64,000 nucleotides of DNA from Escherichia coli (GTDB lineage: Bacteria > Pseudomonadota > Gammaproteobacteria > Enterobacterales > Enterobacteriaceae), in NCBI RefSeq assembly GCF_024700885.2, contig NZ_CP117016.1. One strand, written 5' to 3'. The notes under the pieces were generated by a model. The model searched no databases and was not told where the DNA came from. It saw only the letters and a program-made list of their open reading frames with translations. A program made the translations under genes and the position numbers. Numbering within the stretch: the first letter of the stretch is position 1; each line of letters opens with the position of its first letter. Below are positions 3,224 through 12,878 of this stretch, piece by piece.

Positions 3224-3418
3224 TTTTTGGTCCTTCTCTGGTGTTGTCTGGGAAGTGTAGAGCATGGCAGGGCGGGGTGCCTGGAGTGTGACAAAGGTTA
3301 CACATCGCTGTATGCAATGCTGAAAATTTCAGCACTTAGCGAGGTGCGAGCAAGCTGGCGCTTGCATGGTGGCGTGCGACAGGTATAATCCACAACGTTT
3401 TCCGCATACCTCTTCAGT

Positions 3419-3503
3419 GCCGAAGTGGCGAAATCGGTAGACGCAGTTGATTCAAAATCAACCGTAGAAATACGTGCCGGTTCGAGTCCGGCCTTCGGCA
3501 CCA
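3419..3503 (+). tRNA. leuX: tRNA-Leu (anticodon CAA)
   Basis: 85-nt sequence GCCGAAGTGG...TTCGAGTCCGGCCTTCGGCACCA with a CAA anticodon loop and long variable arm; genomic position after ahr. Confidence 0.9.
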
Positions 3504-4016
3504 AGTCACTAAATTCCTTACAATACAGGTAGTTAGACAATAAAATCTGTCTCTTTTGCCTGTAAGAAATGCTCTGTTATGTCCCTTGAAAAAGCCGCTG
3601 TGGTTGATAGTGGTAATTGGGATGTTAACTCATAGCGGCGTGTAGTTCCAAGCGTCAAACACGTACTGACTCAACTTGAAAGCTATGACGTAGCCACTGT
3701 CTCTAAACAATCCCAAAAACTTTTAGTGAAGCGCATTTTAGCCCGATGCCCCCGTTCTGCCGCTGTCGCGAGACGCCGCAGGGGATAAACAGGTTTATGG
3801 TGGTCACGGTACTTGCAGACCATATGCAAGCTCTGCCAGCGGTTCGGCCTCGCTCCCCTTGGGTACATGGTCATCCTGATAAGCCTCACTAACTGACATA
3901 ACTGTGATGTAGTCGCCAGAGGCTCCGCTTGTTGTCTTACCACCAACGGGGCTTTATGGATTCTATTGCGGTATGTTTGAAAGTGCGCGGGGGTTCATTC
4001 CCGCGCGTCCGGCGCT

Positions 4017-4931
4017 TTATGGTAAGTATTTAAGTATTTCTGCTGCCCAGTTTACACGGTGGATGACACGGGCATGGTGCAAGTTTCCGTCTAGTATTTC
4101 GGCTTTAGTTAGCTGGGATAACTGCTGCCAATTATTGTTAAGTATATAAGTTGCGTTATTACATTGTGAGCTTTCTAGCACGTAAATGTTTTGGCCTGTG
4201 AACCCAAATATCACGTAGCCTTGGAACCCAGCTTGCCCAACCGCTACGAAATCTGGTTTTTTACTATTGATAAGTTCAAGTCTGCCTTCAACAACAGCGG
4301 TATTGCCCTTTCCCCTGATCTTAATAGCTGAAAGGATTTTTGAGCCGATAGTACTCCAAGGCTGTTGACCCTGAGGCAGGAGGCTCCAGTTTAGTTTTAT
4401 AGATTTACTTTTAACGATGGTATTAAGTTGGTCGTCAACAGTTTCGCACAACCCAAAAAGCTCTAAAAAAAGATTAATGCAGTGAGCCACTAACTCTTTG
4501 TTGTTAGCTGTCAAACTTAGCTTTGGAGAGATGATCAACTTCTCCCCTTGAAGATTCTCTACAATCTTTAACTCTATGCTTGGTGGAGGGGTGAGGATTC
4601 TCTTGTAGCGCTTATACTCAATTTCACGAGTGTCAGTAACTTCTTGAGTTGCGCCCCCTCCGATCCATTGCTTTCTAGTCCATGAAATTTGTCTGTATGC
4701 AGTTTCTTTAGGTGCTGTTTTGTCAGGTACTGATTTGCCATTAGCATTGAATCTGGTTATTGGCCCTAAAATCTTGGGGAGGACTTCTTCACCTAAAGCT
4801 CTTTGACTTGAGAAACCAATAGAGTCCGTTTTCCCCGCATCTGGCAAAGAATGTGCAATGTAGATATCACGGCCATCAAAGTTAGGTATGTAATTATCAA
4901 TATTTCGAATACGCTTTTTCTGAATAAGCAT
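4017..4931 (-). CDS. Hypothetical protein, 304 aa, no family recognised
   Basis: Long ORF in AT-rich island DNA; no motif I can assign. Confidence 0.6.
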   Translation of the reverse strand: MLIQKKRIRNIDNYIPNFDGRDIYIAHSLPDAGKTDSIGFSSQRALGEEVLPKILGPITRFNANGKSVPDKTAPKETAYRQISWTRKQWIGGGATQEVTDTREIEYKRYKRILTPPPSIELKIVENLQGEKLIISPKLSLTANNKELVAHCINLFLELFGLCETVDDQLNTIVKSKSIKLNWSLLPQGQQPWSTIGSKILSAIKIRGKGNTAVVEGRLELINSKKPDFVAVGQAGFQGYVIFGFTGQNIYVLESSQCNNATYILNNNWQQLSQLTKAEILDGNLHHARVIHRVNWAAEILKYLP

Positions 4932-4994
4932 GGATCGTTCCTTTTGATTTTATCTTACTGTTTACATAACCAACCAAGCCGGGCACAATCGAGC

Positions 4995-5094
4995 CGTTAG
5001 AAACGATAGTGAGGCTAACAATCGTTATGAGTTTGCAGACTCATGGCGGTCATGCTTCATAGACCGGATTCACGCAGGTGACTCCGGTTTTTTT
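4995..5094 (+). ncRNA. Candidate small structured RNA with intrinsic terminator
   Basis: Three consecutive hairpins by eye (aacgat/atcgtt; atgagt/actcat; ccgga/tccgg) ending in a 7-T run at 5088-5094; possible sigma70-like promoter (tttaca-17 bp-cacaat) upstream. Confidence 0.3.
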
Positions 5095-5906
5095 ATGCCC
5101 ATCATTTATACATGAGCACAACATATAGGGTGTGTTAATAAGATTACCCCCTACATGTTCAGCATTCTAGTTAGGATTCTTTGCAGTACAAGGGGTGATT
5201 TTGAGGTTAAATTGAGGTTGTCAAAGGGAAATTTCGACCAACCCTACGTGCCGTAAGGCTTAGGCTGTATGTCAATGTTTCAGAAAAAAAATGAAAATTT
5301 GATCGAGTGCTGATTTCTTTAGCACGAGAACATGAGATCGAACCAAAATATTGCAAAGTTTTGAACAAAACTTGAGCTGCCTCGTGTCTCCATAGCCAAG
5401 ACGAATGCAGTTTAAATAAGCTAAGTCAGCTCTCAAAAGTCCTTTATGACCCGAACCAAAAATTGTACCTCTTAAACCCCCACCGCAAGCGGCTCTCCGG
5501 GGTTTGTGCGCGTGGAGTAATGCGATTGTACTGGGTATGTGCGCACAACCCTCTACAAGCCGCATTCTACCGTTAGCCTATAGCTGAATCCCCGGCTTGA
5601 AAAATTGCACGCTTATGGTTGCCCCTCCCTCAACTGTATAGCTCGCCCGCGCCCCCGTGCGCATGTGCGTGCCCGCGCGTCAGGGGTCGCTGAGAAAACC
5701 CTAAGATTTTGCTCATCCGAGACAACCGTTGCAGGCGCGCGTTGCCGGGGCACACTGTTAGTGTTTGATGGTGTCATCAATCGACCGTTTTCTGGCACCT
5801 CCCAATCGCACGCTTTCACACTGTTGGAAAAATAGCCTTGGCTTTTCTGGCAGGCCATCCTAATGTTGGCCTCGTTTTCTGGCAGGGGTCAGATGGGGAG
5901 ATAACA

Positions 5907-6467
5907 ATGGCAACTTTTGGCTACGGACGTGTTTCGACATCGCAGCAGGATACTGAGAACCAACGGCTGGAGCTTGGGCAGGCTGGGTGGCAAATTGATT
6001 ACTGGTTTGCCGATGTTGTTAGCGGGAAGGTTCCGGCAATGCAACGTAAAGCATTTTCTGAAATGCTCAATAAAATCCGCGATGGTGAAACGTTGGTGGT
6101 AGCGAAGCTTGATCGTCTGGGGCGTGATGCGATTGACGTCCTGCAAACGGTAAGGGCGCTGGCTGACCGTAATATCAAGGTTCTTGTCCACCAGCTTGGT
6201 AACACAGATCTCACTTCTGCCGCTGGGAAGTTGCTATTATCTATGCTCGCCGCGGTTGCGGAGATGGAGCGTGATCTGCTGATTGAGCGCACTCAGGCGG
6301 GACTATCACGAGCAAAAGCCGAAGGTAAGAAATTGGGCAGACCTCCTAAAATCGCGTCAGAAGCCCGTAGAGAGATTTTAGAGAAAAAGAATAGCGGTTT
6401 GAGTATCAGTGCGTTAGCGCGTCAATATGGCGTTTCAAGAGCGACTGTAGCAGCTATTACCGATTGA
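5907..6467 (+). CDS. Small serine recombinase (resolvase/invertase family)
   Basis: N-terminal GYGRVSTSQQ catalytic-serine motif and C-terminal HTH (LSISALARQYGVSRATV); start at MATFGYGRVS with SD ggggag. Confidence 0.85.
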   Translation: MATFGYGRVSTSQQDTENQRLELGQAGWQIDYWFADVVSGKVPAMQRKAFSEMLNKIRDGETLVVAKLDRLGRDAIDVLQTVRALADRNIKVLVHQLGNTDLTSAAGKLLLSMLAAVAEMERDLLIERTQAGLSRAKAEGKKLGRPPKIASEARREILEKKNSGLSISALARQYGVSRATVAAITD

Positions 6468-6480
6468 ATATGGAGAGTTT

Positions 6481-7326
6481 ATGGCTTACACAGCAACTGT
6501 TATCCCTGTAATGATTGCTTCTCCTGGTGATGTCGCTGAAGAGAGACAAGTCATTCGTGAAATGATCCATGAGTGGAATGATATAAATTCAGCTCGTTCA
6601 AAAGTAATGTTGACACCAATTGGATGGGAAACTCATACATCACCCGAATTAGGAGTTAGGCCTCAGAAGTTGATTAATCAAAGATTATTAGTAGATTGTG
6701 ATTTATTAATCGGTGTGTTTTGGACTCGTCTAGGCTCACCGACTGGGAACGAGGCCAGCGGAACAGTCGAAGAAATCCACCGTCATTTGAATGCGGGAAA
6801 ACCGGCAATGATTTACTTTTCCTCAAAGCCTGTTGCCCCTGAAAGCCTTGATAGAGAACAATATGAGTCTCTTAAATTGTTCAAAACTGAGTGCATGCAA
6901 AAGGGATTGATAGAGTCTTTTAATGACTTATCTGATTTCAAAGACAAAGTCCGTAGGCAACTTTCGATAATTATTTCTAGTAGCCCTTATTTGTCTTCTC
7001 TTATATCTACCATTAACAATTCTCCTGATGCGAATACAAGTCAATCTTTGCCAGAAAGTAATTTGTCCGCCGATGCACTCAGTTTGCTGAAATTGGCATG
7101 TGTCGATGATAGCGGAACAATTTATGTGATAAGGCATTTAGGTGGCACGGATATTCAAGCGGGAAATCAATCCTTTGGTGGAAGTTCGGCTAGAGAGGTA
7201 GCCCGTTGGGAGGGCGCACTTAACGAACTGTTATCCTTTGATTATGTGATTGAAAGAGGGGCAAAAGGACAAATGTATTATGTTACTCATAAAGGCTGGA
7301 CATTTCTTGAATCTTTAAATGAATAA
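6481..7326 (+). CDS. Hypothetical protein, 281 aa; N-terminal motif resembles DUF4062/TIR-like domains (tentative)
   Basis: Starts 13 bp after the recombinase stop with its own SD (ggagag); N-terminus VMIASPGDVAEERQVI fits a strand-SxxD-x-EER pattern; C-terminal half unassigned. Confidence 0.6.
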   Translation: MAYTATVIPVMIASPGDVAEERQVIREMIHEWNDINSARSKVMLTPIGWETHTSPELGVRPQKLINQRLLVDCDLLIGVFWTRLGSPTGNEASGTVEEIHRHLNAGKPAMIYFSSKPVAPESLDREQYESLKLFKTECMQKGLIESFNDLSDFKDKVRRQLSIIISSSPYLSSLISTINNSPDANTSQSLPESNLSADALSLLKLACVDDSGTIYVIRHLGGTDIQAGNQSFGGSSAREVARWEGALNELLSFDYVIERGAKGQMYYVTHKGWTFLESLNE

Positions 7327-7386
7327 TTAAATGCGAGGCCATTACATAAGTTTATTTTTGATGTGAGGGTGAATTCCCTCACATTT

Positions 7387-7881
7387 TTATTCGAAAGAGG
7401 CCGCAATGACTTCTCCTGTTTTTGCGTTGAAAACACAAAAGTATTGAAGCGGAGCTAGCATCCCCAAGCCGTTAACTACCTTAGCTTGTTGCCCAAATGC
7501 CTGAATAATCTTCGCATTCTCATCGTGCCAGAGATAAGTATTAAATACAGGCGCTTCGCTTTCTTGCCACACATGGCGAAACTTCGCTTTCTCATCCATT
7601 ACCTTTTTGCACTCCCTGACCGGGTTATGGTGCGTTTTCGCATAGCATTCCGGGTTGTCATCTGCACATACGATATCTTTTCGTGCTGTCTGATGCTCAG
7701 CACCTACAGCAGAAAAGGCGCATACGCCCAGCACCAATGAGAGAGTGCCCAGAGCACCCCATACAGTTGCGCGTAGCGTGCTGATGTGCTGCTTTGATAC
7801 AGCATGGGCAACTACACTATAACTGGCCCAGCTAATCGCGGCTCCCGCTGCAATCGGTAGTAAAAAGTCTGCTCCCGTCAT
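7387..7881 (-). CDS. Hypothetical membrane protein (two predicted TM helices plus Cys-containing soluble domain)
   Basis: ORF with hydrophobic N-terminal segments; start set at MTGADFLL with SD gaggga. Confidence 0.5.
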   Translation of the reverse strand: MTGADFLLPIAAGAAISWASYSVVAHAVSKQHISTLRATVWGALGTLSLVLGVCAFSAVGAEHQTARKDIVCADDNPECYAKTHHNPVRECKKVMDEKAKFRHVWQESEAPVFNTYLWHDENAKIIQAFGQQAKVVNGLGMLAPLQYFCVFNAKTGEVIAASFE

Positions 7882-8121
7882 GATTCCCTCACTTTCCAAA
7901 CCACATCGCGCCTGATAGCGAACGCTGGTGACGCCCAACCGATGATGATCATCATACTTGTTGGGTTTTAAATGTCACCATTGGTGTTTGTTTTGAATCA
8001 AAAAGGATTGTCATGATACAGCCGATGAATGCTAGTGACTAAGCTCGCTGACGTGAGATTGGATTCAAAATATCTCATATGGAGCGTGGCCTTACAGTGG
8101 TCAAAATTGCACATTCAGTGC

Positions 8122-8586
8122 ATGAAAAAATCCCTGAGAATACAGTTTGGCGAGCGGGTAAAAGAACTGCGCATTGCCACCGGATTGAGCCAGGAGGCCT
8201 TTGCCGATCGGTGCGGGTTTGCACGTAGTTATATGAGCAGAATTGAACGTGGTGGCTCTAATGCGTCTCTGGATGCGATTGAGGTGCTGGCTAACGCTCT
8301 GAGCGTTGAGCCGTGGCAGTTGTTAGCGCCTGGCCCATCTGAAGATAACGACTCGGAACTGTTGGTTCCATACGCAGCCGATGGTTCCTGTTTTCACCCC
8401 GGTTTGGCGAGCACCCGTGATGGCTCGTTTGGCGTAGGTGATAAAGCGGCTCAGAAGCGTTTTGGCACGTTTGCTGAAGCTCTTGAGTATCTTCGTAGCA
8501 TGGAGACAGCAAAATGGCGTAGGCCTAATCCTAGCGGCAACTGGGGTATCGTATCAGCGGTTCGGTGGGACAAACTGAGAAAGTAG
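8122..8586 (+). CDS. XRE-family HTH transcriptional regulator with unassigned C-terminal domain
   Basis: N-terminal HTH (LRIATGLSQEAFADRCGFARSYMSRIERG); start at MKKSLRIQ. Confidence 0.6.
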   Translation: MKKSLRIQFGERVKELRIATGLSQEAFADRCGFARSYMSRIERGGSNASLDAIEVLANALSVEPWQLLAPGPSEDNDSELLVPYAADGSCFHPGLASTRDGSFGVGDKAAQKRFGTFAEALEYLRSMETAKWRRPNPSGNWGIVSAVRWDKLRK

Positions 8587-9076
8587 CTCAAGTGTAAGTT
8601 TATGAATTTTCATGCTGTATGGATGAACAGTATTCATTAGATGCTGATAGTCTTATGTTTCATCAGCCCTTTGTTTCTATAAGAGTGAATAAAACAGCAA
8701 AATGCGGGTGCGTTACGTAGGCGTTACGGTGGCGTTTCGCTTTGGCTCTTAATGGCTTAATTCATATAAATAACATTGAGTTAAATAGTTATTCTGAACA
8801 AGGTCTGCCGGGGTCTAACTGGTTTCAAAATCCGAACGCAGTGGCGTTTATTCAACGTCCACATAGCTGACAAATGTTCTTTCCTCCCGACTCGGCAGAC
8901 CTCCAGAAACATTAAAAGGCAGGTATGGCACGTTGATGTTTTATGCCGCCACGAACACTCGGTTTGATTCCGTCCAGCGGATCAAACTTAATATGTAGCC
9001 CCTAGAACAAAAAGGTCCTACGATTGCTCTCTTAACAGCTAACAGGAACGTGATTACAGCAGGTTATAGAGACTTA

Positions 9077-9101
9077 GGTTCGAGTCCGGCCTTCGGCACC
9101 A
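9077..9101 (+). repeat. Direct repeat of leuX 3' end (att core copy)
   Basis: 25/25 identity to 3479-3503. Confidence 0.85.
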
Positions 9102-9115
9102 AAAGTATGTAAATA

Positions 9116-9138
9116 GACCTCAACTGAGGTCTTTTTTT
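9116..9138 (+). terminator. Native leuX Rho-independent terminator, displaced 5.6 kb from the tRNA
   Basis: Hairpin gacctc-aact-gaggtc followed by TTTTTTT, immediately after the second copy of the tRNA 3' end. Confidence 0.6.
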
Positions 9139-9287
9139 ATGCCTGAAATCCAGTGTTTATCTATCTTTCCCGCTATATTAACTCTCTCAAGGTCAACCGA
9201 TATCAACGTACATCTACCAACATATGTTGGTACAGATGATGGTATTTCCGGTTCGATAATGCTTGTACCAACAGGGAGGGAATACGC

Positions 9288-9878
9288 ATGGCATTAACAG
9301 ATATCAAAGTCAGAGCAGCCAAGCCAACGGATAAGCAATATAAGCTGACTGATGGTGGCGGTATGCATCTGCTTGTCCATCCAAATGGTTCTAAGTACTG
9401 GCGTTTGCAGTACCGTTATGAGGGAAAGCAAAAAATGCTGGCACTTGGGGTTTATCCTGAAATCACACTAGCGGATGCCAGAGTACGTCGTGACGAGGCG
9501 CGTAAGCTGCTTGCGAATGGCGTCGATCCGGGAGACAAAAAGAAAAATGATAAGGTTGAACAGAGTAAAGCACGAACCTTTAAAGAAGTCGCGATTGAGT
9601 GGCATGGCACCAATAAAAAGTGGTCTGAAGATCACGCCCATCGTGTGCTAAAAAGTCTTGAAGATAATCTTTTTGCAGCGCTTGGTGAACGTAATATCGC
9701 TGAGTTAAAAACTCGAGATTTATTAGCACCTATTGTTCCTTTAACCATCCGCAATGGCCAACGGTTTACAGAGCATAATACGAATAGCCGTAGAGCCAGC
9801 CAGTTACGGTGGTCGCGATGGTGTGTCCGCCAGAAAATCACCACGAATACCAGAATCGCGGCACTGACCAGAAAATGA
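9288..9878 (+). pseudogene. P4-type tyrosine integrase (IntB-like), N-terminal ~150 aa only
   Basis: MALTD.KVRAAKPTDK...YWRLQYRYEGKQKMLALGVYPE matches the P4-integrase N-terminal arm; similarity is lost near 9740 and the catalytic domain is absent. Confidence 0.75.
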
Positions 9879-10406
9879 TAAACAGGAAACACGGGGAGGT
9901 TCACTTTGCTTTCTCCTGTAGTATTTTCTGTAGGTTCTGAACCGGTTCGAGCGGGGTTGTGAGGCTGATGGCAATCCCCGGGCTCTTCCTGCATGTTACA
10001 CTGGTACTGCAACAGGGGGCCTTCGCTCCTATGACATTACTCAGTATTTTCACTACTACACCCCATCTGCCATCCATAACAACCGATTCACCCCCTCGGG
10101 AGGCGTTGTTGCCCGTCACCCGGACAGGCATCGTTATGGACTTCTCTTGTTGCACGATCGATCAATTGTTATGCATGCTGACACCACTACCCCGGTGGGT
10201 ATGACCGATGCCTTTCTCACTCTCTTCCCGGTCATCGTCGGCCTTCCCCGTTATTGTGGCGTGTCGGCACCATCGACGGCATTTCGATGGCTGCTCAGTG
10301 TTCACTCACGTTACGGCCCGCATAACCCATTGACTTCCTGAAGAAGTCGTTTCAGGGAGAGATTCAGCCCTTTTGTTACCTCCTGGACCGCTTCCTGTCC
10401 TTCCAG

Positions 10407-10681
10407 TTGGAGCGAGAGTTAGTCGGGGCGGACTTTCACCGACGGAAAGATCGTGCATTTCAAGGCACACACAACAATATCTGCGAGCGTGCTATCCGTC
10501 CGGTCGTTATGGGACGAAAGGCCTGGTTGTTCGCTGGTTCACTGATGGCCGGGAACCGAGCGGCACAGATAATGAGCCTTCTGGAAACAGCAGTCTGGAG
10601 CCACATGCTTGGCTGACGGACGTCCTAACGCGTCTGCCCGGAGTGGCCGGAGGAGAGGTTGGCAGAGTTACTGCCTCTTGA
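10407..10681 (+). pseudogene. IS66-family transposase (TnpC) C-terminal fragment
   Basis: ERAIRPVVMGRKAWLFAGS motif in one frame, continuation in another. Confidence 0.55.
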
Positions 10682-11045
10682 GGGCTTTACCTTCTTTGGG
10701 TAAGTGATACCTGCCGTCAGGTGTTTGTGCACCGGGCCATAACCTGCAGTTGGGAATTGAACGCCTGACAACAGGAAATGAGCTAGAGCAGTAAACACGC
10801 GGGCTGACAATGGGTCAGAATATGAGTCTGCCCGGCGTTATTCTTGGGGTCAGTACTTCAGATCCAGCCTCCGGTACCAGACTAGCTAGCCCCTACGCAA
10901 CCAAATAAATCAACCATCGTAAGAGTGCAATCGTTCATATACACTGCCGGTGATGGGCGGAAAAATGCGTTAATGTTGAGTTCCTCGAACCCTTACCAAT
11001 TAAGGGACATAGCCAGATACGCAACTGGCTGATGCAAGCAGTCTG

Positions 11046-11358
11046 ATGTCTTTAGATTCGCTGGCCTGCGGGCATGACAATGTCAAACAGTCAAAGATTG
11101 TGGCGTTGACGGTCAGTCTGGGTCGTAAAAACTTCCTGTTCTTCGGCTCTGACCATGGTGGTGAGCGGGGAGCGCTACTGTACAGCCTGATCGGGACGTG
11201 CAAACTGAATGACGTGGATCCAGAAAGCTACCTTCGCCATGTGCTTGGCGTCATAGCAGACTGGCCGGTCAACCGGGTCAGCGAACTGCTTCCGTGGCGT
11301 ATAGCACTGCCAGCTGAATAACACATCCCCGTCAATACGGCCCTCGCTGTACGCTTAC
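11046..11358 (+). mobile_element. IS66-family 3' remnant (TnpC C-terminus plus terminal repeat ending ...GTACGCTTAC)
   Basis: GRKNFLFFGSDHGGERGALLYSLIGTCKLNDVDPESYL; the same end sequence recurs at the other IS66 copies. Confidence 0.65.
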
Positions 11359-11434
11359 GATTAGTGGTGGTGTCTTCCAGTGCGAGGAGCAGCGGATGAG
11401 CCTCACATGCCCTTGCAGTGGCGGTAAATCCGGC

Positions 11435-11808
11435 TTAGGCAATGGCTTCCGGGGACACAGACGGGTTACGTATCAGGCGGTACGCACTTTCAACCTGAGC
11501 AGTGGAGTGGGATGATTTCACAATAGAAAGACCTGCATGCTGAGCGAGAGAAGAGGCCAGTGACACAAGGCGTCGTGTACGACGCGGATCACCGAGACGG
11601 GCATGTCCAAACTGCTCGTTATCCCATGAATAACAATCAGAAAGTACCATAACAGACCCGAAGAAAATGAAATATAAGAGAAGATCAACGGGTGAAGAAA
11701 AAGTTCAAAAAATCGCTGCCGGGGAGGAAGGAAACTACCGAATGGAAAGAGTCCCCCTAAAGCAGACTGACAGACATCACAAATCCCCGGGTGGGGATTT
11801 GTGTATAA
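11435..11808 (-). mobile_element. IS4-family (IS50-like) 5' remnant: transposase N-terminal fragment plus terminal inverted repeat
   Basis: ARLGDPRRTRRLV...AYRLIRNPSVSPEAI resembles the Tn5/IS50 transposase N-terminus; CTGTCTCTTATACACAAATCC end at ~11787-11808. Confidence 0.55.
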
Positions 11809-12113
11809 GAGACAGCCTGATAGGGGGGCGCATACATTATGCATACATACTCTCGGATATTGTAAAAGTTTTTTATATAATTACTAAGTTAGCTACCATC
11901 AATAAAATATTGACGTTAGCAGGTAACATCAACTTAATATATAAAAATATTCTTAGGTGAAAGTAACTGTTCAAGATAAAATAAAATCATCGCTTAAAAA
12001 GAAAAACACTCTCTTTGTTATATACGTACTCTGATAAATGCCAGATAAAACTATTAATTTTCATAAAAATATAATGCCATATATTATGATGCTATACATC
12101 TTACATATTCAAT

Positions 12114-12878
12114 TCAGATATATTTTAATTTTTCCGATAGTTCTTGACACGCATCAAGAACCAAAGTTGAATAATATTCAATTTTTTCTTTAGGTATCTG
12201 AATTTCCACGCCACTAATGCTGATAGCTGCAATTACTTCACGAGTCTGATTAAATACCGGAGCAGCAATACAATAAATTCCCGGTGAATCCTCTGCGTTA
12301 TCAAAAGCCCATCCACGTTCACGAATACGTGCAAATTCCTGTATTAGATCAGATTTACGAGTGATAGTTGTTTGCGTAAATCGTGGCAACGTTTCCTCAG
12401 GCAACAATGTGTCAATGACGTCTTGAGGTAACCACGCACATAAAGCCTTACCAACTCCAGAACTATGGAGTGGCAACTTCTTGCCTACCCACGTTCTGAT
12501 GCCAATTGGTTGTGTACTCTCGAGTTTCAAAATATAGATTGGAGCGACTTCATCGAGAATGCCCAGATGGCAGATAAGATCAGTACTGTCTCTCAGTTTT
12601 TCTAGAACCGGCCTCGCTACCTTACTGATGTCAAACTGCTCCAGAGATCGATTCCCCCATTCATACAATTTCAGCCCAAGAAAAAAACGCCCTCTTTCCT
12701 GACGTAACAGATGATGTTCGACAAGGGCATTCAGTAAAGATGATGTGCTGCTTTTTGGCAGATCCAGATCCTGCTGGATCTGGCTGAAGGTGGCGCCTGG
12801 AGAGCTAAAAAGGTAATTGCAGACTCTGACAGTTTTATCGAGTGCTGGTACCGATGTTCTGATGGTTTGATTATTCAT
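12114..12878 (-). CDS. IclR-family transcriptional regulator
   Basis: Family call from HTH-plus-ligand-domain organisation; start chosen at MNNQTIR (alternative upstream ATGs at 12920 and 12950). Confidence 0.7.
   Translation of the reverse strand: MNNQTIRTSVPALDKTVRVCNYLFSSPGATFSQIQQDLDLPKSSTSSLLNALVEHHLLRQERGRFFLGLKLYEWGNRSLEQFDISKVARPVLEKLRDSTDLICHLGILDEVAPIYILKLESTQPIGIRTWVGKKLPLHSSGVGKALCAWLPQDVIDTLLPEETLPRFTQTTITRKSDLIQEFARIRERGWAFDNAEDSPGIYCIAAPVFNQTREVIAAISISGVEIQIPKEKIEYYSTLVLDACQELSEKLKYI

Follow-up and report, generated by a model that had tools for sequence, protein, structure and literature searches.

Two adjacent genes, encoding a small serine recombinase and a 281-aa protein with a DUF4062 domain, were analysed in a 64,000-nt stretch of Escherichia coli DNA (contig NZ_CP117016.1 of assembly GCF_024700885.2; the whole stretch is hereafter called the window). 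Both genes lie within a small genomic island, and we consider it fairly likely that the gene for the 281-aa protein represents a self-contained, single-gene defence of the DUF4062 type, which would act by abortive infection and is carried as optional cargo behind the resolvase gene of that island. The pair and the hairpin that closes it are arranged as follows:

5907–6467, plus strand: small serine recombinase of the resolvase/invertase type, 186 aa, WP_000190110.1 (ATG at 5907, stop codon TGA at 6465–6467)
6481–7326, plus strand: DUF4062 protein, 281 aa, WP_000331918.1 (ATG at 6481, TAA at 7324–7326)
7360–7385, plus strand: intrinsic-terminator-like hairpin, a 10-bp stem followed by TTTATT, closing the recombinase–DUF4062 unit

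The two genes are separated by 13 nt (6468–6480), and a GGAG motif is located 5–6 nt ahead of each ATG (5897–5900 for the recombinase and 6472–6475 for the DUF4062 gene). A first-pass annotation of the same DNA had given exactly this anatomy, with the stop at 6467, the start at 6481, the 13-nt spacing and a separate GGAG for each gene, and the N-terminus that it quoted for the 281-aa protein, VIPVMIASPGDVAEERQVIREMIHEW, is present as written. As inspection of the gap revealed no promoter-like site between the genes and the T-tract terminator at 7360–7385 follows the second one, the sequence suggests that they probably form a bicistronic unit, and the co-transcription proposed earlier is thus plausible. 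The pair was found in collinear arrangement in 387 of 5426 complete E. coli genomes (~7%), and the 13-nt junction is retained in lineages whose DUF4062 proteins are just 61–83% identical, so that the adjacency of the two genes is not accidental. The analysis identifies a common pair next to leuX that has so far been annotated as "hypothetical protein / recombinase".

Domain architecture and family of the 281-aa protein

RefSeq lists WP_000331918.1 as a DUF4062 domain-containing protein, and a profile search matched residues 10–99 to Pfam PF13271 (E = 3.9e-4, model positions 2–79 of 82). Across 85 relatives, the same model was matched by 49 at E ≤ 1e-3 and by 83 at E ≤ 0.1, with a best value of 9.2e-8. 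The PADLOC profile PDC-S60 aligned with residues 8–167 at E = 1.3e-26, covering positions 5–169 of its 906 only, and searches against NCBIfam and PHROGs returned no match. The DUF4062/TIR-like N-terminus recognised in the first-pass annotation was therefore a correct call.

An AlphaFold2 model calculated with the family alignment reached a pLDDT of 94.1. In this model, residues 1–147 adopt a TIR-like fold that also resembles nucleoside 2-deoxyribosyltransferases (NDT), namely a five-stranded parallel beta-alpha fold of the flavodoxin/TIR-like type, followed by a two-helix stalk (150–179), a disordered linker (180–196) and a C-terminal domain (197–281) predicted to form a compact winged helix of the MarR type. 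The C-terminal ~130 residues, left unassigned until now, can thus be described as a helical stalk and a winged helix. The 281-aa protein is a member of the DUF4062 family from a divergent lineage with a Swarozyc-like architecture, in which the DUF4062 domain, the helical stalk and a winged-helix/helix-turn-helix (HTH) auxiliary (AUX) region are joined in one polypeptide.

Alignment of 85 sequences with 37–64% identity to the query revealed D17, N33, Q62, D74, G85, G94, E98 and H102 as invariant. The candidate catalytic residues E97/E98 belong to the SGTVEEI helix, where the alignment to the Pfam model ends, E98 being invariant and E97 present in at least 90% of the 85 sequences. The family is conserved over its full length, with nearly all members comprising ~270–290 aa, and includes 2121 close (word-indexed) homologs and 1214 representative clusters at E ≤ 1e-30. 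Members were recovered from 80 species of Proteobacteria, Planctomycetota, Chlorobi, Bacteroidota, Bacillota, Actinomycetota and Chloroflexi, and plasmids of Caulobacter and Synechococcus PCC 7942 carry full-length homologs as well; phage genomes yielded none. Many Enterococcus plasmid genes match the N-terminal domain (residues 1–160) only. The locus adds a large and phylogenetically broad lineage of predicted effectors to the recently described family of DUF4062 NADase defences.

Two further observations concern the family. Eight longer relatives of ~360–490 aa (P0157, P0162, P0200, P0203, P0224, P0234, P0247 and P0255) match the query in two stretches, which may reflect a second copy of the C-terminal winged-helix domain or additional C-terminal modules. 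The 90%-identity cluster of the 281-aa protein also contains entries of 164–197 aa named "recombinase family protein", suggesting that a fused or read-through open reading frame (ORF) call bridged both genes during clustering.

Comparison with described DUF4062 defences

Osinski et al. (10.64898/2026.05.01.722283) described DUF4062 as a TIR-like NADase and reported that the Swarozyc protein KpSwz, composed of DUF4062, a helical stalk and an HTH/winged AUX region, protects E. coli by abortive infection. KpSwz forms auto-inhibited oligomers; binding of AUX to the phage portal activates them, and the catalytic glutamate is required. Evangelion, described by Ibarra-Chavez et al. (10.64898/2026.06.25.731849), is likewise a single gene in which a DUF4062 core is combined with a co-adapted AUX region and which causes loss of NAD+.

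The window protein shares with KpSwz a single polypeptide of ~280 aa, a DUF4062 domain with a catalytic-type glutamate in the helix after strand 3, a stalk and a winged-helix/HTH domain, and both are enterobacterial proteins encoded in defence islands with no partner gene. By position, E97/E98 may represent the counterpart of KpSwz E97, TEP1 E1008 or Eva01 E87. Whereas the trigger of KpSwz is the phage portal, both the trigger and the NADase activity of the window protein are predictions. Evangelion (Eva01–04) resembles the window gene in its DUF4062 core, its required and diversified auxiliary region and its occurrence as a single gene on mobile elements, and the NAD+ drop and abortive infection that it causes are predicted, by analogy, for the window protein as well. 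The two differ in their motifs (F11, E87-Y88 and Q/W/E with W162 in Eva01; SPGD, W49-E50 and SGTVEE in the window family), in the auxiliary region, which is a compact winged helix in the window protein, and in their setting, a chromosomal tRNA island versus an antimicrobial-resistance plasmid. For PDC-S60, the N-terminal ~165 residues are clearly homologous to the window protein, but ~740 of the 906 model positions have no counterpart in it; with only the N-domain matched, PADLOC would not call the window gene PDC-S60. Taken by analogy with the two preprints on DUF4062 NADases in abortive infection, the putative immune effector proposed in the first-pass annotation is most likely just that.

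Stand-alone distribution and neighbouring defence genes

Gene neighbourhoods were surveyed in 80 species-representative loci by all-against-all clustering of 725 neighbouring ORFs, which yielded no conserved partner gene of any kind. As no partner is conserved across these 80 species, the DUF4062 family was regarded as consisting of stand-alone genes. A serine recombinase is located directly upstream in 3 loci (E. coli-like, Enterobacteriaceae UBA5654 and Citrobacter). The pairing thus fails outside Enterobacterales, 77 of the 80 species having no upstream recombinase, an outcome that the first-pass annotation had itself listed as speaking against its view of the pair.

Among 20 immediate large neighbours from 17 non-enteric loci submitted to PADLOC, six gave strong matches, namely Lamassu LmuB, a pAgo-associated nuclease, a CBASS cyclase, a type III restriction endonuclease, PDC-S06 and PDC-M55C. 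Enteric DUF4062 loci are flanked by type I restriction-modification, BREX, Shedu, GmrSD and Mrr genes, and the family is associated with defence islands.

These data bear on a non-immune role, in which an NDT-like enzyme of nucleotide salvage or modification, fused to a DNA-binding winged helix, would serve as a metabolic enzyme or as a transcription regulator of the island. The fold by itself would allow for such a function. The gene is, however, patchily distributed and shaped by horizontal transfer, it is cargo in a mobile island, defence genes are over-represented next to it, conserved metabolic partner genes are lacking, and the tested DUF4062 proteins of the same architecture are NADase defences. 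We thus regard a non-immune role as unlikely and favour the single-gene defence.

In a Legionella metagenome-assembled genome (MAG), a homolog (E = 5e-54) of the 304-aa ORF that also occurs in the window island lies 183 nt upstream of the DUF4062 homolog on the same strand (locus L029, 1265–2164, plus strand). The two genes adjoin in 1 of the 80 loci, and in E. coli the 304-aa ORF precedes the recombinase by ~1 kb and is encoded on the other strand. On account of the Legionella locus, the ORF was examined as a candidate DUF4062 partner; this single co-occurrence could be due to chance within defence islands or to a functional link. A 9.8-kb contig assigned to a Collinsella sp. MAG (L002, JAIJJM010000048.1) carries recombinase, DUF4062, membrane protein and HTH genes and shares 99% identity with the E. 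coli island; it probably derives from E. coli and was mis-binned into an Actinomycetota MAG.

The leuX mini-island and its cargo slot

In the window, the chromosomal genes lptG, yjgR and ahr are followed by leuX, behind which the island with the recombinase–DUF4062 pair is inserted:

3419–3503, plus strand: tRNA-Leu(CAA) gene leuX, the integration target (ARAGORN)
3479–3504: attL, the left copy of a 26-nt direct repeat (exact) at the leuX 3' end
3505–9102, no strand: mini-island of 5.6 kb between the 26-nt direct repeats, a copy without tyrosine integrase
4017–4931, minus strand: 304-aa ORF, WP_000908169.1, a left-slot module common to ARS-C101-type elements
7387–7938, minus strand: membrane protein of ~165 aa, PHROG_20749 (PHROG match 7.8e-102), a backbone gene
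8122–8586, plus strand: XRE-type HTH regulator, 154 aa (RefSeq), a backbone gene conserved in all element variants
9077–9102, plus strand: attR, the right copy of the 26-nt leuX 3'-end repeat (exact direct repeat)

Many genomes, including K-12, have an empty site in which the leuX and intB flanks are joined (~300 bp), and the exact window version of the island is present in 78 genomes. Complete elements with a tyrosine integrase of 636–652 aa (DUF6538 and Phage_integrase domains) were identified in ATCC 25922, FORC_031, EDL933, Klebsiella, Enterobacter and others. Their order is tRNA, integrase, a hypervariable left slot, a res-like site, the resolvase, the DUF4062/cargo slot, the 165-aa membrane protein on the minus strand, XRE-HTH and attR. 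What occupies the left slot differs between elements (NIPSNAP/DUF1643, AAA_13, NUDIX/DUF4468, Shedu SduA_C, DUF6119 and others), and the four genes of the right block are spaced identically in lineages with 61–99% DUF4062 protein identity.

Comparison of element variants revealed that the DUF4062 gene is the sole content of a cargo slot spanning 6459–7383. In CX05, the same backbone is inserted at tRNA-Gly, and 405 unrelated bp replace window positions 6459–7383, while in O157:H7 EDL933 the recombinase (81% nucleotide identity) is followed by two other genes instead of DUF4062. In ~300 E. coli genomes, O157:H7 among them, the recombinase is present but DUF4062 is not, and the GC content drops from ~0.51 in the recombinase to ~0.40 in the DUF4062 gene right at the gene boundary. 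Because the DUF4062 gene is optional on a shared backbone and the composition changes between the two genes, the pairing was interpreted as a backbone gene next to a cargo slot. It is confined to one family of Enterobacterales mini-islands and lends no support to a phase-variable switch. The recombinase-mobilised cassette suggested in the first-pass annotation was only loosely right: the recombinase is a backbone gene of a tRNA-integrating island that normally carries a 650-aa tyrosine integrase of its own, and DUF4062 is optional cargo.

The same comparison can be read against an obligate two-gene system, in which the recombinase would be a regulator, an antitoxin-like partner or a DNA-damaging co-effector, and against an autonomous recombinase-mobilised cassette. 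The junction of 13 nt and the gene order are kept across 61–99% DUF4062 identity, the pair is probably bicistronic, and a resolvase autoregulating at res, as in Tn3-family elements, would set DUF4062 expression. Yet the DUF4062 family occurs without an adjacent recombinase in 77 of 80 species, the recombinase occurs without DUF4062 in ~300 E. coli genomes, the pair has no recombination site on its right and is always found inside the same island backbone, and a co-transcribed recombinase was dispensable for defence in E. faecalis (PMC12632615). An obligate two-gene system or autonomous cassette appears quite improbable to us, and we maintain that DUF4062 is a single-gene cargo.

The EDL933 cargo slot (L082, 7901–10142) holds two minus-strand genes of 438 aa and 257 aa, which gave no PADLOC match and are, by position, candidate defence genes. 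Behind its own resolvase, an ARS-C101-type element (L085, 11467–16386) carries a DpdF-like DEAD/DEAH helicase (PADLOC DpdF, E = 0) and a series of small genes. The 165-aa membrane protein, which has two N-terminal transmembrane helices and a Cys-containing C-terminal domain and is convergent with the DUF4062 gene, was dismissed as a candidate partner of DUF4062: CX05 retains it as part of the backbone although DUF4062 is missing there, and non-enteric DUF4062 loci lack it.

The serine recombinase and its res-like region

The recombinase features S10, a DRLGRD motif and a C-terminal HTH, and its orthologs carry the Pfam Resolvase domain. It matched PHROG_125 at 1.2e-55 and, among PDB entries, gamma-delta resolvase at 1.4e-25 (93 bits, residues 1–183) and Gin at 6.5e-23 (85 bits). 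Directly upstream of its ATG, the following region was identified:

5772–5884, plus strand: res-like region with a 26-bp crossover-type site (5772–5797) and motif copies at 5841–5852 and 5873–5884

Within 100 bp just upstream of the recombinase ATG, the motif TTTTCTGGCA occurs in three exact copies (5788, 5843 and 5875), and one other copy is found in the 64 kb. The outermost copy forms the right arm of a 26-bp near-palindrome, TGCCAACAAACG-AC-CGTTTTCTGGCA, with an arm symmetry of 10/12 in two of the surveyed loci (L092 and L095), while the 26-bp site of the window (5772–5797) is a hybrid, TGTCATCAATCG-AC-CGTTTTCTGGCA. Diverged elements retain this motif at equivalent positions. With three motif copies at a spacing of 55/32 bp and a span of 113 bp, the region presents three putative subsites. 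The res site of gamma-delta spans 114 bp and comprises three subsites with centres 53 and 34.5 bp apart.

Neither a second nor an inverted copy of the site was detected in the island (3400–9400 searched), and hix-like inverted repeats in the island were limited to short, imperfect pairs as expected by chance. Inverted alleles were likewise absent from the 387 collinear genome matches, and ~20 inspected loci displayed one orientation. As no second or inverted site was present in the island and no inverted allele was seen, we read the recombinase as a resolvase, which would act on the three-subsite res-like region upstream of its own gene. In accordance with this assignment, its length of ~185 aa, S10 and DRLGR resemble those of Tn3/gamma-delta resolvases, with gamma-delta resolvase as the best PDB match, and the ~113-bp region with three motif copies at 55/32-bp spacing directly upstream of the gene resembles the Tn3/gamma-delta layout. 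In contrast to those transposons, the element has no transposase and is an island that integrates at tRNA genes and has a tyrosine integrase, its half-site TGCCARMAAACG is unrelated to that of gamma-delta, and its res function is putative.

An invertase flipping a promoter or gene segment, with phase-variable expression of DUF4062 as a consequence, had been proposed in the first-pass annotation. The recombinase does score as "DNA invertase" in PHROGs, it matches the Mpi master-invertase model, albeit far under the cutoff (98 vs 272 bits), and Pin-type invertases affecting phage adsorption are documented in the literature. However, the two inverted crossover sites around an invertible segment that characterise Hin/Gin/Pin-type invertases are not present in 3400–9400, with one site region only and no inverted partner anywhere in the island, where inverted repeats are short, imperfect and chance-like. 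Each of the 387 genome matches forms one collinear piece and the ~20 annotated loci share one orientation, while three directly repeated motif copies just upstream of the gene correspond to a res layout rather than to hix/gix. Site layout and population data essentially exclude phase variation by an invertase, to which we assign a minute probability, and the resolvase assignment was retained.

The left-hand side of the island points to recombination at the outermost subsite. Five unrelated left-hand contexts and one hybrid junction converge on the 26-bp site. Through the left arm the window is identical to ARS-C101, and at the central AC it switches to identity with ATCC 25922. A res-like array of its own, based on the left-arm motif TGTCATCAAT with a spacing of 52/29 bp, is present in ARS-C101, whose recombinase is 47% identical and where the 304-aa module is located upstream of a different resolvase. 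The window island appears, as judged from this mosaic, to be the product of a res-by-res deletion between two tandem leuX islands in which the integrase was lost. Module exchange mediated by res at the outermost subsite is familiar among Tn3/Tn21 relatives, and the mosaic junctions of the window island are located at that same subsite.

A statistical link of small serine recombinases to defence genes was reported by Andersen et al. (PMC12632615), who found such recombinases to be co-transcribed with defence genes and, in the tested E. faecalis case, dispensable for defence. As in their RADS, for which the enterococcal EF_B0058 was the bait recombinase, a small serine recombinase is followed in the window by a defence gene (here a predicted one) less than 100 bp away on the same strand. 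The window recombinase differs in having a defined island backbone and a res-like site, so that the linkage is that of a cargo slot beside a backbone gene. The locus provides, in one well-sampled case, a concrete anatomical explanation of the reported link: the recombinase, probably a resolvase, belongs to the backbone of a mini-island, the predicted defence gene sits in the cargo slot that follows, and modules appear to be exchanged at res.

Proposed mode of action

We propose that the N-terminal TIR/NDT-like domain acts as a nucleotide glycosidase, most likely an NADase with E97/E98 as catalytic acid, which would be kept inactive in oligomers through the helical stalk. Binding of a phage-derived protein or nucleic-acid cue by the winged-helix sensor may then activate the enzyme, so that NAD+ would be depleted and the infection aborted. 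The DUF4062 gene would probably be read through from the resolvase promoter, whereas the resolvase itself would serve the island in resolution and module exchange, and the immune reaction would need no recombinase. In the window, a res-by-res deletion between two tandem leuX islands would have removed the integrase. Owing to its compact size of 281 aa and its very confident model, the protein is well suited to asking what the winged-helix sensor recognises.

Several observations weigh against this interpretation. The NADase and defence roles of the window lineage are predicted from tested relatives, and the fold is common to nucleoside 2-deoxyribosyltransferases, so that a substrate other than NAD+ is possible. 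At 21 bits the Pfam match is weak, and the N-domain is ~12 residues longer than the Pfam model, the additional residues being located between strand A and the glutamate; in both respects the divergent DUF4062 domain differs from that of Swarozyc. No solved relative was found among PDB sequences by phmmer or with the family profile. KpSwz residues D16, R18, D71, W176 and W238/Y239 lack counterparts at the same positions of the window protein and of its Klebsiella and Yersinia relatives, and, of the five tested Swarozyc proteins (KpSwz and four others), UPI0002A39D72 and UPI001927123B were not found in protein-cluster look-ups; the window protein probably belongs to a different clade from the tested Swarozyc proteins, as far as its sequence indicates. 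With regard to the recombinase, resolvase and invertase are not separable by sequence alone (gamma-delta 93 bits, Gin 85 bits), and the res assignment derives from a sequence pattern, with binding and cleavage being putative. Finally, the strict retention of the 13-nt junction over 61–99% protein identity could mean a functional tie that is tighter than adjacency.

A bolder interpretation, which we put forward tentatively and hold to be somewhat less probable than its opposite, combines two claims: that the res site and resolvase are an engine shuffling defence cargo in mini-islands, and that the DUF4062–winged-helix lineage is a distinct and widespread defence clade with a trigger of its own. 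Recombination at subsite I would take place between tandem leuX islands, or between an island and a plasmid whose res sites are related, and would swap whole left-hand modules (Shedu, AAA_13, NUDIX, DUF6119, the 304-aa ORF and others) and sometimes delete the integrase. The candidate clade extends over more than 1000 clusters at 50% identity in many phyla.

Further features of the locus

The 304-aa ORF had no match in Pfam, PADLOC, NCBIfam or PHROG, and PADLOC gave no match for the backbone genes of the island. A paper on E. coli defence islands (PMC10121019) makes no mention of leuX or of this mini-island. Following attR, a second, decayed island (9288–11650) comprises, according to the RefSeq annotation of an identical locus, a truncated P4-type integrase gene intB, a phosphoethanolamine-transferase fragment and remnants of IS66 and IS4/Tn5 transposases. 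Between these insertion-sequence remnants and a gene for an IclR-family regulator, the region 11800–12200 is very AT-rich (GC 0.275).

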